Source of the DNA: Magnetococcales bacterium
Lineage (GTDB): Bacteria; Pseudomonadota; Alphaproteobacteria; UBA2136
NCBI GenBank assembly: GCA_002689455.1
Contig: NZGE01000015.1
Coordinates: 1-53,776 of the forward strand
DNA length: 53,776 nt
Direction of reading: 5' to 3'
A program made the position numbers and the translations under genes. The notes under the pieces are model-generated. The model ran no database searches. It saw only the letters and a list, made by a program, of their open reading frames with translations, and had not been told where the DNA came from. Of this stretch, positions 20,826 through 49,224 are shown piece by piece (position 1 is the stretch's first letter; every line of letters starts with the position of its first letter).

Positions 20826-22033
20826 TAGTTAATAGACCCTCTTGTATCGATTAATTGTTTACCCTTTAAATTTTCTAAAGTAATTGTTTTAAAAGCGTCA
20901 TGGTCGGTTAGCATTACTAGAACATCCGCTTTTTCTAAAATTTCTTCTTGGCTTACAAGTGTAAAACCTTCCAATTCTTCAACATAAGGCTCGCAAGCAA
21001 TAATATTAGCTTTAAGGGCCGATTTTAAAAGGCTAGCAACTTTTAAAGATGGGGATTCACGCAGATCATCCACATTTGGTTTAAAAGCTAAACCAAGTAA
21101 ACCAACGGTTGGGTTTTCTTTATTTGTTTTGGCAACCGCTTCAACAACTTTTCCAACAACCCAGTGCGGCTTACCATCATTAATTTCACGTGCTTGCTTC
21201 ATAAGCTTTGCATTGCCAGCCTTTGATGCTGCAACAATAAACCAAGGGTCAATGGCAATACAGTGCCCACCTACACCAGGGCCTGGCTGTAAAATGTTTA
21301 CACGTGGGTGGTGGTTGGCTAAACGAATAACATCCCAAACGTTAATCCCCAATTCGTCACACACAATTGAAAGTTCATTGGCATAAGCAATGTTCACATC
21401 ACGAAATGCGTTTTCTGACAGTTTAACCATTTCGGCAACTTTATCGTCTGCTGGTAAAATAGCACCTTTTATAAATGTGCTGTAAAAAGCCACTGCTTTT
21501 TCGGTTGATGCTTCGTTAACACCGCCAACAACACGGTCATTATGAATCAATTCATACAGCGTGTTTCCAGGAATGGCACGTTCTGGGCAAAAGGCATAAT
21601 GAACTTTACCCTTCAATTCTGGGCGCGTTTTTTCAATAACCGCCATCACATCTTGTCGTGTAGCACCTAGTGCGGAAGTAGATTCCAGAACAACTAAATT
21701 CCCTTCTTCTAAAACAGGCGCTAAATTTTCGCACGCACTGTGCACATAGGACATATCGGCTGATTTATCTTCTTCAATAAAAGGTGTTGGTACAATAATA
21801 AGATGAACGTCGGCCTTTTGTGGAGATTGAGATGCCTTAAGCAAACCAGAACCAACGGATTCCTCCACCAAATTCTTCAAACCTTTTTCTTCAAAGTGTG
21901 GTAACCCTGCGTTAATTTTATCAACCACTTCCGCTTGAACGTCTACCCCTAAAACTTGGTGACCTGCCTGTGCTAAAAGACCTGCAGTTGGTAGGCCTAT
22001 ATAACCTAAACCAATAACATTTACTTGTGCCAA
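20825..22033 (-). CDS. wecC: UDP-N-acetyl-D-mannosamine dehydrogenase family
   Basis: GLGYIGLP, VPTP, LEST, CPER, KLSENAFRDVNIA, GPGVGGHCI, GLAFKPNVDDLRESP; TTG start. Confidence 0.92.
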   Translation of the reverse strand: MAQVNVIGLGYIGLPTAGLLAQAGHQVLGVDVQAEVVDKINAGLPHFEEKGLKNLVEESVGSGLLKASQSPQKADVHLIIVPTPFIEEDKSADMSYVHSACENLAPVLEEGNLVVLESTSALGATRQDVMAVIEKTRPELKGKVHYAFCPERAIPGNTLYELIHNDRVVGGVNEASTEKAVAFYSTFIKGAILPADDKVAEMVKLSENAFRDVNIAYANELSIVCDELGINVWDVIRLANHHPRVNILQPGPGVGGHCIAIDPWFIVAASKAGNAKLMKQAREINDGKPHWVVGKVVEAVAKTNKENPTVGLLGLAFKPNVDDLRESPSLKVASLLKSALKANIIACEPYVEELEGFTLVSQEEILEKADVLVMLTDHDAFKTITLENLKGKQLIDTRGSIN

Positions 22034-44492: not shown

Positions 44493-46397
44493 GTGGAATT
44501 TTTACAACTAATGCTCATTTTACCGTGGGTTTTTGCATTTGTTTTAACAGGCAGGTTTACGCTTCGCTTTTTTGGTATTACACATTTAAAGGGTATTTCG
44601 TCTTTCACCTTTAACTACTGGGCAGGCTTTTCAATCATCAGCCTTATTCTTTTCATATACACAAGCTTATTTACATTGAATCTAACCGCAGTTACTTCTA
44701 TATTTTCAATTGCATTTCTTGGCTTCTTACCAAGTAAAACACAAACAATGAAAAGCCACTTTAAGTCATTTGATCAAGGTCATTTGCTTAGTTCTTTATT
44801 TGTGCTTGCATGCCTTATCACCCTACCTGCAGCCATGACAGCCCCACTAGCTGGCTCAAGCCTAGAATATCACCTAGCCATTCCCAAAGCTATCGCTGAA
44901 ACAGGCGAAATGTCACTAACAATGGATAGTTTTATTCAATCAGGCCCCCTATTATCACATAACATAAGCGCCGCTGCATATTTAGCAGGCGGTGAAAAGT
45001 TGATGATGTTACATGGCTGGTCACTATTCTTACTTTCTGGGTTAGCTGTTTTCACATTGGCACGCCGCCGTTTACGTGTGGGTTCTTCATGGATTTTCAC
45101 ATCATTGGTTATGAGCTTACCCGCATTAACTTACAGTGCAGGAAGTGGCATTATAGAACCAAGACTTTTAGGGCTTGTAACACTGGCTGCTTTTTCTCTT
45201 ATTTACTACGCACGCAGTGAAAAGCTTTCATGGCTTGTTTTAAGCGCATTGTTTATTGGTACAGCAGCGCAAATGCATATTATTGGTATATTTACCTACA
45301 TGGCCTTTTTAATAACCGCCATCTTAATCCAAAAAGACTTTGGCCTTAAAAAAGGTCTTAGTCACTTTGCATTATTTACCATTTTATGCACATTTATTTC
45401 AGCACCTTTTTATCTTTGGGCGTACTCTGAAACGGGTAAAGTTCTTATTCCGTTTATGAACGACCTTTCAGGTATGACAGGCTGGAGCGATATGCAACAA
45501 GCTTTATATAACCAAGAAGCTTTAACGCAATCAAACTTTGTAGAGCGCACAAAGTCAAACTGGCTATTCACTTACCCACTTGCAATGACCCTAAAAGCCA
45601 AAGAATGGGGCACAAGCCACCTTGGATTGGGACCCTTATTTTTAATGTCGCTTATACCTGGCCTTATCCTTGTATTTAAAAGGTTTTCATACATCAGTCC
45701 AATAGCTAAACCAATAGGCACACTTGAGCTTCACGTTTACCTATTCATGACCTTTTATGCACTTTGGTTCTTTTATGGCATGTCTATGGAACCACAAAGC
45801 CTGATACCAATGCTACCTCTACTTATGCTTCCAGCATGGGTTATGGCGGAAACACTCATTGCACGCAGCTCATTTGCCATTCGAAGCAGCATTATCACAG
45901 CAACCTTTGCAATCATGGCTGTACAATATGGTATTTCATCTAAGTTAAACCAACCTGCCATAGCGCTTTTCTTTAAAAAAATACCTTTAGAAACTTACAT
46001 TGCATATAACATGCCTGAAGTAAACGTAGCTCAATATTTAAAGCGCACCATGAATGATGGCGATAAAGTACTCTACACGCAAAACGGTAAAATGAACTAT
46101 GTGCTTGGACGTAAAGGGTTTTATGCCCCAGCCGTATTCCAAGAAAAAATCCCAGTTGCATTTGGCACAAGCACCGATATTATCAACAGTGCTTTAAGTG
46201 AAAATATAACCATGTGGGTTACTGAAAATGATGCGACAAACCCAAGCTACGACAGTGACTTTAACGCACACAAACACCTAAGAAAACTTATAAATTACGG
46301 CTGCTTTAGAGAAGACGGTTACATTGAACCTGTCCCGAATAAAAGTTTTTACGTGTATAGGTTTATTCACAATTGCCAAGGCCGTGCAACGTTATAA
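44493..46397 (+). CDS. Polytopic membrane protein, GT-C (ArnT/PMT-like) glycosyltransferase-like
   Basis: Many TM helices, LEYHLAIPK loop motif, soluble C-terminal domain; GTG start. Confidence 0.6.
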   Translation: MEFLQLMLILPWVFAFVLTGRFTLRFFGITHLKGISSFTFNYWAGFSIISLILFIYTSLFTLNLTAVTSIFSIAFLGFLPSKTQTMKSHFKSFDQGHLLSSLFVLACLITLPAAMTAPLAGSSLEYHLAIPKAIAETGEMSLTMDSFIQSGPLLSHNISAAAYLAGGEKLMMLHGWSLFLLSGLAVFTLARRRLRVGSSWIFTSLVMSLPALTYSAGSGIIEPRLLGLVTLAAFSLIYYARSEKLSWLVLSALFIGTAAQMHIIGIFTYMAFLITAILIQKDFGLKKGLSHFALFTILCTFISAPFYLWAYSETGKVLIPFMNDLSGMTGWSDMQQALYNQEALTQSNFVERTKSNWLFTYPLAMTLKAKEWGTSHLGLGPLFLMSLIPGLILVFKRFSYISPIAKPIGTLELHVYLFMTFYALWFFYGMSMEPQSLIPMLPLLMLPAWVMAETLIARSSFAIRSSIITATFAIMAVQYGISSKLNQPAIALFFKKIPLETYIAYNMPEVNVAQYLKRTMNDGDKVLYTQNGKMNYVLGRKGFYAPAVFQEKIPVAFGTSTDIINSALSENITMWVTENDATNPSYDSDFNAHKHLRKLINYGCFREDGYIEPVPNKSFYVYRFIHNCQGRATL

Positions 46398-46496
46398 AAT
46401 CATACAAAAGGGGCAAAACATTTAAAACAAACAATAGCTTATTTCATATAGGATTTTTTTAGAAAATAATTATTGTTTTAGGGTTGAAGTTTATCC

Positions 46497-46515
46497 ATTA
46501 TTTTCATATATGAAA
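46497..46515. repeat. 19-bp repeat copy 1 / putative operator
   Basis: ATTATTTTCATATATGAAA, containing the perfect palindrome TTTCATATATGAAA; identical to 48257-48275. Confidence 0.8.
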
Positions 46516-48153
46516 GTAACAGACAAAAAAAACCCATACATGAAACCGGACCTAAAAATGGATACATTATTCAGAAATATTGCCAAACAGCTAAAAAAAG
46601 CAATTGAAGAAAAAGATATTTCTATTTCAGAACTTGCTAAAAAAGCAGATGTATCCGATGCCACACTAAGCCGTATTTTATCAGGTGAGGCCAACCCTTC
46701 TTTTGATAAAATTGTACGTATTGCAAAGTCCTTAGAAATAAGCCTAGACAAACTAACGGGCTTACCTATTAAGGAAGTGGAAAGTAACGCCCCCACCCTT
46801 GAGCAAGAGGATTATTCAAATGAAACCGACATTCTAGCCAGTTTTGAAATAAGCGATACAGACTTAACACCTTCCCAAGCATCTCGTATGCTTACAAGCG
46901 CTGCCAACGGCACATGGATAGCGCACCCACACGACAGTTTGATTAAAGAAAACACACCGCGTGTTAAGCCTATTTTTTGCATGCAAACTGGCACACGTAA
47001 AATATGTGTGGATTTAGCATTCCCACACACCTACGTTGAAGAAGGTTCCATTGCCAGCCTTATTGGTGTTATTGGTTCAGCCCTTGCAGGTACACAAGCC
47101 AAACTTATGGATATTCGCATACCTACAGCGTTGGTGCGCACCTTTAAAGCCCCTTTTAATGGCAGACAATCTATTTTGGAAAAAATGTCTGAAACCCCCC
47201 GCCCGTTGCTAAGCGTGACCATGCGCCCTATGACAGGCTTAACACCACAGCACTATGCAGATACTGTATATAAATTGCTAAAAAACGGTGTTGACTTCAC
47301 ATGCGACCCCACCATGATGCATTCACTTCCTGAACACGACTTTCGTGAGCGTGTAAACCGCATTGCAGAAGTAATCAATGAGCTAAAATATGAAGAGTCA
47401 CTTCGAAATAAGCACCACATGGTGAATGTAAGTGCAGCCACCACAGAAGAAGTGATTGACCGTGCACGCCATGCTGTTTATGCAGGGTTAAAATACCTAT
47501 TAATCGACACCTCCGCAACGGGCTTTAGCACACTACAAAGCCTACGTAAATTTGCAGAAGAACATGACGTTATTATTGCAGCCATGGGCGCCCGTGGCAT
47601 GCAAACAGCCACCATGAGCGAACAAGTTATTGCAAAACTTTTACGCTTTGCAGGGGCAGATATTGTAAGTATTCCAAGCCCGCTAGGGGAAAGCTTTCAA
47701 AACTCACGCCGTCAAGTTAAAGGAACTATTTTATCCCTTATCGGTGATGACCCAATTGCGCAAGACCACTTAGGCCTTTCCTTCGACCAACCAACACTTT
47801 GCATGAAACAATCCATTCCAGCAGTTGGTGGTGGGCACAACCCATGGCACTTTCCACGCATTATAGACACGGTAGGCGCAGGCTGCATTATTCAATGTGG
47901 CGCCAATGTTATGAGCCATCCAAACGGCATTGAAGCAGGTGCAAAAGCAAATATTGCAGCCGTTACAGCGCTGATGGAAGCATCCAAAAAGGGCCAAAGC
48001 CTTGCCGTTGAAGGAAAGAAGATATTGCAAGAATCCGCAAGACACAATGAAGCCTTAAAAGAAGCCTTAAAACATTGGAGCGAAGGCGCATTTCTATTTG
48101 GGGTTATTGAAGGCGACAAAACCAACATATCAGGCACCATTAAGGTCGTATAA
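46510..48153 (+). CDS. XRE-family HTH fused to a catalytically degenerate Form I-like RuBisCO large-subunit domain
   Basis: aa ~24-84 HTH_3 (SELAKKADVSDATLSRILSGEANPS); aa ~104-530 collinear with RbcL (TDILASF, GTW, EEGS, RPLL, GVDFTCD, AKLLRFAGAD, GLSFDQ, HPNG...AGAKAN). True start may be Met11 or Met17. Confidence 0.9.
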   Translation: MKVTDKKNPYMKPDLKMDTLFRNIAKQLKKAIEEKDISISELAKKADVSDATLSRILSGEANPSFDKIVRIAKSLEISLDKLTGLPIKEVESNAPTLEQEDYSNETDILASFEISDTDLTPSQASRMLTSAANGTWIAHPHDSLIKENTPRVKPIFCMQTGTRKICVDLAFPHTYVEEGSIASLIGVIGSALAGTQAKLMDIRIPTALVRTFKAPFNGRQSILEKMSETPRPLLSVTMRPMTGLTPQHYADTVYKLLKNGVDFTCDPTMMHSLPEHDFRERVNRIAEVINELKYEESLRNKHHMVNVSAATTEEVIDRARHAVYAGLKYLLIDTSATGFSTLQSLRKFAEEHDVIIAAMGARGMQTATMSEQVIAKLLRFAGADIVSIPSPLGESFQNSRRQVKGTILSLIGDDPIAQDHLGLSFDQPTLCMKQSIPAVGGGHNPWHFPRIIDTVGAGCIIQCGANVMSHPNGIEAGAKANIAAVTALMEASKKGQSLAVEGKKILQESARHNEALKEALKHWSEGAFLFGVIEGDKTNISGTIKVV

Positions 48154-48162
48154 ATCTTAAAA

Positions 48163-48249
48163 ATTTGATGCGTATCATACGCATATCATACGAAAAAAAG
48201 GTGCATCACCAACGTATCGGTGCGTTCAATACGCATCAAATACGCATCA
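48163..48249. repeat. Cluster of ATACGCAT motifs, direct and inverted
   Basis: Copies at 48168-75 (reverse), 48177-84, 48229-36, 48240-47; 13-bp inverted repeat 48163-75 / 48229-41. Confidence 0.75.
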
Positions 48250-48256
48250 CGGACAA

Positions 48257-48277
48257 ATTATTTTCATATATGAAAAT
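48257..48277. repeat. 19-bp repeat copy 2 / putative operator
   Basis: ATTATTTTCATATATGAAA; perfect 18-bp palindrome ATTTTCATATATGAAAAT at 48260-48277. Confidence 0.8.
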
Positions 48278-48370
48278 TAATACGAAACATATGGCGTATG
48301 AAACCTGCACAAAGCACCAATGATAAAGAAACGGAAAAGATATTGTATTTACAGATTCTTTCTTAAAGCC

Positions 48371-48405
48371 AATAAAAAAGGAGGCTAATCGCCTCCTTTT
48401 TTATT
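48371..48405. terminator. Bidirectional terminator overlapping the stop of the convergent gene
   Basis: AATAAAAAAGGAGGC-TAATC-GCCTCCTTTTTTATT. Confidence 0.8.
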
Positions 48406-49224
48406 TTCCTGTGGTAACTCTGGAATAATCTTCAAGCGGTTTTCTGGTTCTTCCAACAGTCGCTTTAATGCTTTAACCTTGGTAACACCACTGTCGCCCA
48501 ACCTATCCACCGTTTGCAGAAAGCTTTGGTATGCAAAAGGTGTTAAAAGAGAAGATAAATATTCTGCGTAAATTTCATTGCTTAAAGGCTCTACTTCTTT
48601 ATGCAACTTATGCTTTTTAAGGCTTTTATCATCACGCAAAGTTTCTACCGTAAAATCACTTCGATCAAGCAGGCTATATGAATGTAAAGGCATTCCCATT
48701 AAACTACCAACCGCCTTTGAAACCACATGCACCGAACAAGGGTTTGACAACTTCTGCCCTGTTATATGTGCCAGTGCAATGTTAATTCGTGAAATATCTG
48801 TCATATTAAAATGCATTTTTTCACCTAATTTTTGTGAAGCAAACACCTCTTTACAGTCAACTTCATTGGTGGAAAGCCCCCAGCTGTGCGTATCGAACCC
48901 TATAAACATTTTGTCACGCCCTGGGTTGCGTGAAAAACGAGCTTTAGGTAACGAACGTTCTAAAGGTACAACGTTAAAGCTATATGCTTTTTCGTAATCT
49001 TCTTTGGTAAAAATAAACTGCGCCTTGCGAGTGTCGTAGTAATATTCACCCTTTAAAGGTAAACCAGAAAGCTTCGCCACACCTTCATCATCTACTTCAA
49101 TGTAAAATGTTAAATATGCGTCCTTAATTTTCATGCCGTATCCAGCAAAAGCCTCACTTACAAAAAAAAGTGAAGATAAAAGCATAAAAAAGATTGTTTT
49201 TTTAATGTTGGCAGTTGATTTCAT
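48385..49224 (-). CDS. Hypothetical exported protein
   Basis: Sec signal peptide ending AFA; no family recognised. Confidence 0.75.
   Translation of the reverse strand: MKSTANIKKTIFFMLLSSLFFVSEAFAGYGMKIKDAYLTFYIEVDDEGVAKLSGLPLKGEYYYDTRKAQFIFTKEDYEKAYSFNVVPLERSLPKARFSRNPGRDKMFIGFDTHSWGLSTNEVDCKEVFASQKLGEKMHFNMTDISRINIALAHITGQKLSNPCSVHVVSKAVGSLMGMPLHSYSLLDRSDFTVETLRDDKSLKKHKLHKEVEPLSNEIYAEYLSSLLTPFAYQSFLQTVDRLGDSGVTKVKALKRLLEEPENRLKIIPELPQENKKGGD

Follow-up and report, generated by a model that had tools for sequence, protein, structure and literature searches.

The stretch of DNA analysed here (the window) is 53,776 nucleotides (nt) long and makes up contig C16 (NZGE01000015.1) of G000, the source genome assembly GCA_002689455.1 of a Magnetococcales bacterium, which comprises 1,611,762 nt in 75 contigs with a G+C content of 38.9 %. 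It carries a gene for a protein in which an N-terminal helix-turn-helix (HTH) domain of the XRE type is fused to a body resembling the large subunit of ribulose-1,5-bisphosphate carboxylase/oxygenase (RuBisCO), hereafter called the HTH-RuBisCO gene. The gene is bracketed by two copies of the 19-mer ATTATTTTCATATATGAAA, one upstream (O1) and one downstream (O2), which are the proposed first and second binding sites of the encoded protein. The features of the locus are collected in Table 1. Three congeners of G000 (G001, G002 and G003) were used for comparison, giving a genus sample of four genomes, three of which are 96-97 % complete. Comparison with these and with more distant relatives suggests that the upstream site is very probably the operator of the regulator, and it lends good support to an autoregulatory reading of the locus.

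Table 1 Features of the HTH-RuBisCO locus (positions are those of the window; aa, amino acids; ORF, open reading frame)
Feature	Position	Strand	Remarks
Degenerate copy, 11/14	46442..46455		Probably chance; without counterpart in G001
Putative -35, TTGAAG	46484..46489	+	TTGAAT in the G001 alignment; distance to TATATG 17 nt in both
Upstream 19-mer, proposed operator O1	46497..46515		Core 14-bp palindrome TTTCATATATGAAA at 46502-46515; exact repeat
Putative -10, TATATG, inside the palindrome	46507..46512	+	Proposed from the alignment with G001
Degenerate copy, 10/14	46532..46545		Right half intact, possible weak auxiliary site; aligns with CTGTATATATGGAA of G001
HTH-RuBisCO-like gene	46558..48153	+	Likely start ATG 46558; longest ORF from 46510 (547 aa)
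HTH_3 (XRE-type) domain	46591..46755	+	Residues 28-82 of the 547-aa ORF; PF01381
RuBisCO large-subunit N-terminal domain and barrel, carboxylase residues replaced	46810..48078	+	PF02788, PF00016
Four ATACGCAT motifs	48166..48251		Include a 17-bp perfect palindrome, 48168-48184; sole such cluster in the genome
Downstream 19-mer, proposed second binding site O2	48257..48275		18-bp perfect palindrome, 48260-48277
Bidirectional intrinsic terminator	48371..48405		Shared with the convergent gene 48385-49224; perfect 15-nt arms, A/T-run flanks; kept in G001

The preliminary description of the window had reported the 19-mer at both places, 1760 bp apart, and searches of the window and of the assembly confirmed this. 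When up to three mismatches were allowed, the window yielded four matches, namely the two sites and their own reverse-strand readings; 0.09 were expected from shuffled sequence and none of 100 shuffles reached four. In the whole assembly the 19-, 14-, 12- and 10-mers are each confined to these two places. Far from being common in the genome, the 14-bp core occurs only at the two sites in 1.61 Mb: base composition predicts 0.04 exact 14-mers in G000, twenty block shuffles of the assembly contained no exact copy, and the chance of a second 19-mer is 2e-4. Both 19-mers are letter-identical in contigs assembled from three other public DNA runs, belonging to three studies. Since both copies are present in these independently assembled contigs, the pair is not an assembly artefact; the populations behind the three runs are essentially clonal, which makes them uninformative on constraint. 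Beyond the 19 nt, local alignment of the flanks gave a similarity no better than that of shuffles (p=0.51 and 0.98), and a longer duplication behind the repeat was rejected on account of this dissimilarity. The perfect palindrome extends over 14 bp in the upstream copy and over 18 bp in the downstream copy. The hairpins that the two palindromes could form are weak (-2.8 and -3.6 kcal/mol), which disfavours a hairpin role and favours duplex protein sites over structural elements.

Conservation of the upstream palindrome was assessed in 25 orthologous loci with 5' DNA; locus L017, in which the contig ends at the gene, was omitted. Inspection of the DNA upstream of the gene in the first 12 loci yielded the consensus TTSCATATATGSAA, which is found within about 150 nt upstream in all 25. 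Using test windows from -160 to -10 relative to codon 24, the first 12 loci, which were the source of the pattern, were found to contain 21 sites with at most three mismatches in 1800 nt of upstream DNA and 7 in 52,039 nt elsewhere, and each of the 12 has a site. For the later 13 loci, which were held out, the corresponding figures are 18 sites in 1950 nt upstream and 2 in 52,207 nt elsewhere, again with a site in every locus (13/13). This upstream enrichment in the held-out loci has an odds ratio of 243 and a Fisher p of 2e-24, a value that overstates the significance, as the genomes compared are related and not independent. Six additional loci were drawn from genome and metagenome collections, and every one of them carries a site no more than 100 nt from the start of the match, with 0-1 mismatch in three cases; the site of L063 is the same as that of L026, and the two possibly represent one organism.

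A matrix made from 30 loci (T29 T29 S27 C30 A27 T22 A22 T24 A23 T24 G29 S22 A29 A28) revealed that both outer half-sites are nearly invariant and that the flanks are unconserved; the sites were picked by pattern match, so that the core columns are biased and the flanks unbiased. In G+C-rich members of the family the centre drifts while the outer TTSCA and TGSAA half-sites stay, as would be expected if an HTH dimer made no contact with the centre. Sites in tandem, most often 21 nt apart (range 17-27 nt), are present in at least 10 of the 25 loci as well as in L054 and L061, an arrangement that would fit cooperative binding of more than one dimer. The upstream neighbour genes differ between the loci, which means that the motif travels with the HTH-RuBisCO gene. 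At other places in G000, several near-matches coincide with gene starts of the form ATG-AAA, and a start-codon context effect was considered for this reason; it explains part of the genomic background, not the order-wide dyad at variable distance from the start. The earlier suggestion that this XRE regulator, like others, has a palindrome at its own promoter thus agrees with the retention of the motif upstream in all loci of both samples.

O1 is orthologous to TTCCATATATGATA in G001. The alignment of the two genomes reads GGTTGAA(G/T), 17 nt, TATATG, with the palindrome over the -10, so that the hexamers of the possible promoter that had been proposed at the 5' site are present and the pair is kept in the nearest relative. 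A consensus promoter scan did not list this pair; its rule requires T as the last base of the -10. Repression by promoter occlusion would be the natural reading of the arrangement, as seen in these two genomes. The site had also been placed over the first ATG of the gene. It does cover ATG 46510; judged by the conserved N-terminus, however, the true start codon is probably ATG 46558, since the proteins of relatives with 89, 80 and 75 % identity start at the counterpart of residue 17: those at 89 and 80 % begin MDTLF/MDKLL, and G001 starts at the equivalent residue. The palindrome ends 43 nt before this codon. Contigs from RNA library X15 lie only within 46535-48080 and leave both sites and the 3' spacer uncovered; DNA carry-over in this library is possible. 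One of the RNA-library contigs has an extra A in the A7 run at window position 46592, which would shift the frame. It does not occur in the three DNA runs and is probably an assembly or reverse-transcription slip.

The locus is altered in G002 and G003, where an intact ORF joins the RuBisCO N-domain to the C-terminal tail, without the HTH and without the barrel. The remnant ORFs are on the minus strand, at about 2944-3435 in L028 (G002:C5) and about 3025-3327 in L029 (G003:C2), and the remnant open frames measure 187 and 209 aa. They may be the product of a recent in-frame deletion, or else encode a mini-protein that has been retained. Where the promoters align, these genomes carry TTACATACATATAA and TTGCATATATATTT, with four mismatches each; the left half and TATAT are kept and the right half-site is gone. 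Decay of the right half together with loss of the HTH is what one would expect of a dyad maintained for the HTH, and it provides modest evidence to this effect from two related genomes.

Two degenerate copies of the palindrome had been put forward as sites phased with the main one. Their match counts of 11/14 and 10/14 hold, but the role as phased sites does not, as both are at background frequency: the window contains 12 sites with at most three mismatches to the 14-mer, against 8.8 expected, and 66 with exactly four, and neither copy is above chance on its own. With offsets of 60 and 30 bp, or 5.7 and 2.9 helical turns, they are only loosely in phase with the main site. G001 has a second good site, CTGTATATATGGAA, at 27 nt from its first one, which is the counterpart of 46532-46545 in G000.

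The fusion protein combines an HTH_3 domain (51.8 bits; cut-off 23) with RuBisCO_large (residues 222-523, 144.4 bits; cut-off 30.1), while RuBisCO_large_N is barely above its cut-off (20.9 against 20.7 bits) and Phage_CI_repr gave a weak Pfam match (24.5 against 22 bits). The closest solved HTH chains are those of Pli0006, SinR and CylR2 (E 5e-5 to 5e-3), and the HTH recognition region is conserved in the family alignment. With the NCBIfam model of the anaerobic benzoate regulator, the HTH part scored 23.9 bits against a cut-off of 204, hence the protein is not a member. An AlphaFold2 model with a mean predicted local distance difference test score (pLDDT) of 83.7 has a five-helix N-terminal HTH domain (pLDDT 79-91) and a RuBisCO body predicted with confidence, joined by a disordered linker (residues 72-87, numbered from Met17), as well as a tail that is disordered. 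No other RuBisCO_large genes were found in G000.

The best solved relatives of the body are form I large subunits, such as 7qsw_A (2.2e-58 over residues 96-533). In the alignment with 7qsw_A, tiKpK is replaced by tmRpM and ftKdDE by ftCdPT, the HR of lhRam falls in a gap, and GK of loop 6 is GE. In spinach numbering, Lys175 and Lys177 correspond to Arg and Met, the carbamylated Lys201 and Asp203/Glu204 to Cys, Pro and Thr, His294/Arg295 to the gap, and Lys334 to Glu. Judged from its sequence, the large subunit is devoid of the carboxylase active-site residues and catalytically dead. The active-site pocket has been remodelled rather than merely having decayed, because the replacements are constant through a 19-sequence family alignment and stand beside new positions that are strongly conserved. 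All NCBIfam models for RuBisCO and RuBisCO-like proteins remained below their cut-offs: the form I model NF003252 reached 256.1 bits (cut-off 438), and of the form IV-type models NF007095 (MtnW-type enolase) reached 121 (409), TIGR03332 95.5 (513.6) and NF042437 (OiaX) 56.5 (700).

Of 25 genomes from other families of the order, 24 have a homologue with an HTH, and the single miss is a genome that is 54 % complete. The G001 copy is 75 % identical, and related proteins with 98, 89 and 80 % identity (P0002, P0003 and P0004) occur in protein databases. Both HTH_3 and RuBisCO_large were detected in 57 of 60 database homologues (E <= 1e-20), which are named only 'RuBisCO large subunit C-terminal-like domain-containing protein' or 'large chain'. 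The family is compact, with about six clusters among 1.84 billion representatives at 50 % identity. Only 11 of these representatives matched at E <= 1e-30, and beyond the roughly six members of the family the score falls from 334 bits to 181; the next matches are true form I large subunits, four of the seven scanned passing the NCBIfam form I cut-off. A metagenome scan gave five loci, the closest at 75 % identity, and the exact stretch of the window was found in marine, cold-seep, vent and estuary metagenomes. The hosts are small-genome, uncultured marine Alphaproteobacteria. No description of an HTH-fused RuBisCO was found by full-text search of the literature, supplements being outside its scope, and the passages of PMC12168267 located by term search describe none.

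Of the 24 loci with sufficient 3' sequence, 16 (L003-L009, L011, L016, L018-L020, L022, L024-L026) have a small-subunit gene directly after the HTH-RuBisCO gene. The product of this next gene starts with M..RFETFSFLPPL, and two examples tested match RuBisCO_small (PF00101) with 87 and 75 bits. This implies that L-S assembly would have been retained in these relatives without carboxylase chemistry. By such sequence criteria, the small subunit present in most relatives is gone from the genus: PF00101 was detected in none of the four genomes (0/4), a profile of the 16 relatives' small subunits found nothing at E <= 10 in the six-frame ORFs of G000, and a profile search for a remnant in the 3' spacers of G000 and G001 returned only noise (E 0.4 or worse).

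The reading that we consider probable, with moderate confidence, is that the 14-bp palindrome is the site of the XRE-type HTH of the encoded protein and that this protein is a transcription factor with a RuBisCO body. A dimer formed through the RuBisCO-type body would set two HTHs on the half-sites TTNCA and TGNAA, each HTH being linked to the body by a flexible stretch of about 16-25 residues. With the upstream copy over the -10 and the start at 46558, occupancy of the site would repress the gene and result in negative autoregulation, and a small molecule in the remodelled, strongly conserved RuBisCO pocket would presumably modulate binding. The downstream copy contains the whole site in a more perfect palindrome and should be bound whenever the upstream one is. 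It would have arisen recently in the G000 lineage by short-patch copying of the operator and could act as an auxiliary operator, either by raising the local concentration of repressor or, if the protein is at least tetrameric, by closing a loop of 1.76 kb.

A number of observations weigh against this reading. Another regulator could own the motif, the match between protein and DNA being a predicted one. A search for a regulon in G000 and its relatives found none, near-matches being at background and mostly within ORFs, and a regulator controlling only itself would be odd. Besides the two exact matches to its own site, G000 has three with one mismatch (1.35 expected) and 29 with two (22.4 expected), and 11 of 13 near-matches inspected in this genome are inside ORFs of at least 90 aa. 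A relaxed palindrome pattern matched 12 times in G000 against 3.1 times in shuffles, but the reversed-pattern control gave 18 matches; the strict motif gave 0-2 matches per genome in five relatives, equal to the control. The genes beside the extra matches (encoding a YgjP-like peptidase, an epimerase, a methyltransferase and Fur) share nothing. A search of the other orthologues found promoter-like hexamers inconsistently placed relative to the motif, which weakens the case for repression over activation. As for the downstream copy, a site with two or fewer mismatches was found in none of the other loci with 3' sequence (24 in number), the part of G001 that aligns with the copy is unrelated to it, and the five additional bases shared by the two 19-mers (ATTAT) fall beyond the 14-bp core that is conserved. 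With the small subunit lost from the genus, the protein may not reach the oligomeric state that looping requires.

Two single matches elsewhere deserve mention. On contig C57 of G000 (21823-21836), TTTCATATATGCAA with matching AT-rich flanks is located on the likely ATG-AAA start of an ORF for an M48-like peptidase with an HELGH motif; it is the best other match in G000 by the order-wide consensus, and support for it as a target was not found. In L064 (G009:C6, about 1971-2014), a perfect TTCCATATATGCAA lies about 28 nt from the half-site-like GCATATATGGA. Both are intergenic, about 90 nt upstream of a gene for a YgjP-like metallopeptidase and away from the HTH-RuBisCO locus of G009, and the L064 site is possibly a second target in this genome.

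Conservation around homologues holds for the upstream site, in all loci, but not for the downstream one (0/24). L052 has a weak match, with three mismatches, about 160 nt past its gene. As the downstream copy is absent from the other loci and from G001, the comparative data give it no functional support, and looping is at best possible as a species-specific addition. O2 lies, close to the roughly 100 bp given earlier, 104 nt after the stop codon, in a 230-nt spacer between convergent genes and 95 nt before the bidirectional terminator. It may be that the upstream site is an operator while O2 is a neutral, recent by-product that might titrate a little repressor, an explanation that we find tenable though on the unlikely side. 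Its origin would possibly be a short-patch duplication or template switching at the palindrome, perhaps while the small-subunit gene was decaying out of this spacer. Besides being peculiar to G000, the copy shares with O1 the ATTAT stretch, which is unconserved in the family and would match over five bases by chance with a probability of about 0.001. Because this identity lies outside the core, it suggests a copying event rather than selection for binding, and a short copying event in the G000 lineage is the most likely origin of O2. A neutral copy also fits the position in a spacer between convergent genes in which no promoter-like pair was found, and a locus that is decaying in the genus, with the small subunit lost in four of four genomes and the gene truncated in two of four. 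On the other hand, the copied patch coincides exactly with the operator, the palindrome has grown to 18 perfect bp through its new flanks, as one would not expect of a random remnant, and the graded similarity that a decayed larger duplication would leave around the copy is absent. Its identity in the assemblies of three further studies also points this way, although these are clonal and uninformative on constraint.

The downstream copy takes on a larger role in an extended form of the transcription-factor reading, which we regard as unlikely and as speculative in its details. Here, a dead form I RuBisCO would have been turned into a metabolite-sensing, multivalent factor, which in most of the order would bear as many as eight HTHs on a scaffold resembling L8(S8), and in G000 it would form a 1.76-kb autoregulatory loop as lambda CI does. 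Such a multivalent HTH display is drawn from family knowledge of RuBisCO oligomers. In form I RuBisCO, the small subunit bridges dimers.

It is improbable that the upstream palindrome belongs to another regulator, for instance one of the LysR type, or is a promoter element, and that the fused HTH binds elsewhere. CbbR is a LysR-type regulator that acts at RuBisCO operons, and the motif formally fits the LysR box, T-N11-A. LysR genes are present in G000 (2), G001 (2), G004 (1) and G005 (1), and the link between the fused HTH and the upstream palindrome is an indirect one. The two LysR_substrate genes of G000, however, are on contigs C44 and C32, not on C16, and none lies beside the locus. None was found in G009 (92 % complete), yet two sites are present upstream of the G009 gene. 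In addition, the right half of the palindrome decays precisely in the two genomes that have no HTH, and the motif is not enriched elsewhere in the genomes.

Even less probable is that O2 serves as operator or start region for a small gene or small RNA missing from the annotation, which would lie between 48276 and the terminator and be co-regulated with the HTH-RuBisCO gene. There would be room for it, with about 95 nt between the site and the strong terminator. ATG-AAA in the palindrome opens a 17-codon frame, and the region 48154-48410 folds well below shuffles (z=-6.2). Yet there is no -35 at the right distance, the promoter scan found no promoter-like pair near the site, an Rfam scan gave only sub-threshold matches, all of them on the terminator, and the 17-codon ORF is not conserved in G001. 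It is the hairpin of the ATACGCAT motifs and the terminator that account for the low folding energy, rather than the stretch beyond the site, and the G001 equivalent does not share this low energy (z=-1.6).

The ATACGCAT cluster itself would form a long hairpin as RNA. One of the four motifs is inverted, forming the palindrome, and the cluster includes two tandem ATACGCATCA; it is the only cluster of at least four ACGCAT per 110 nt in the genome and holds three of the six genomic ATACGCATCA. Similar motifs, GCGCAT/ACGCAT, also occur in the 3' spacer of G001, and the whole spacer is absent from G002 and G003.

A recombination or insertion scar, in which the 19-mers would be a target duplication or att-like repeats left by a mobile insertion, is suggested by direct repeats that bracket a single gene but is barely credible and was rejected, since all four genomes of the genus have the same synteny (a 634-aa gene of no known function, the HTH-RuBisCO locus, a 279-aa gene likewise, EF-P and a SuhB-like gene), the site is occupied by decayed remnants, and is not empty, in two congeners, inheritance is order-wide, with homologues in 24 of 25 genomes of other families, the ORF and Pfam scan found no recombinase between the repeats, G001 has no repeat, and the left copy is an instance of the order-wide conserved motif. 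The two neighbours just mentioned (44493-46397, 634 aa; 48385-49224, 279 aa) match no Pfam or NCBIfam family above threshold and are conserved and syntenic in the genus.

To our knowledge, no RuBisCO homologue is known to be a DNA-binding regulator; those known are carboxylases or enzymes acting in the metabolism of sulfur or sugar acids. The main interest of the locus is a defined operator for a previously undescribed family of RuBisCO-derived regulators. The verified palindrome offers the RuBisCO-regulator hypothesis a concrete DNA target, a 14-bp operator with natural variants across 30 loci, and the two identical copies in G000 make up a simple system in which to ask if a RuBisCO scaffold bridges distant DNA sites. 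If the sites turn out to be unbound, the HTH of the fusion needs another explanation.

Several known systems invite comparison. The locus differs from a LysR/CbbR-controlled RuBisCO promoter in having no adjacent LysR gene, which at such promoters is usually divergent, and from a mobile insertion with flanking repeats in its conserved synteny, the single gene inside and the lack of a recombinase domain. Phage lambda CI represses from OL and OR by long-range looping. It shares with the present system an HTH_3/Cro-C1-type domain, palindromic operators at its own promoter and a second operator set, kilobases away, that an oligomer can bridge. Here, in contrast, the body is a RuBisCO large subunit instead of the CI C-terminal domain, two sites bracket one gene outside a phage context, the distal site is unconserved and looping is a prediction. 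With looping repressors in general (lambda CI, LacI, DeoR, GalR) the locus has in common, by the evidence of its sequence, two identical sites 1760 bp apart.

On the side of the protein body, form I RuBisCO (L8S8) has the same large-subunit fold, and a small-subunit gene is next to the fusion gene in 16 of 24 relatives' loci; the fusion differs from it in the replaced catalytic residues, a score below the form I cut-off, the N-terminal HTH and the absence of a small subunit in the genus. Like form IV RuBisCO-like proteins it has no carboxylase residues, but it scores below the MtnW and OiaX cut-offs and carries an N-terminal HTH. BzdR and NadR consist of enzyme-derived effector domains fused to XRE HTHs and are counted among the 'trigger enzyme' regulators. 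They have the same order of an N-terminal HTH_3, a linker and an enzyme-descended domain that presumably senses a metabolite, whereas the body is RuBisCO in the present case, for which no precedent was found in the literature, and most relatives have a small-subunit gene. Finally, the repressor and Cro of phage 434, SinR and CylR2 differ from the fusion protein in that HTH identity is low, the half-site is its own, and the protein, of about 530 aa, has an enzyme-derived body. The operator of phage 434 is 14 bp long with a non-contacted, AT-rich centre. What these proteins and their sites share with the HTH-RuBisCO locus is the HTH_3 domain and a 14-bp operator with conserved 5-bp outer half-sites around a variable, AT-rich centre.

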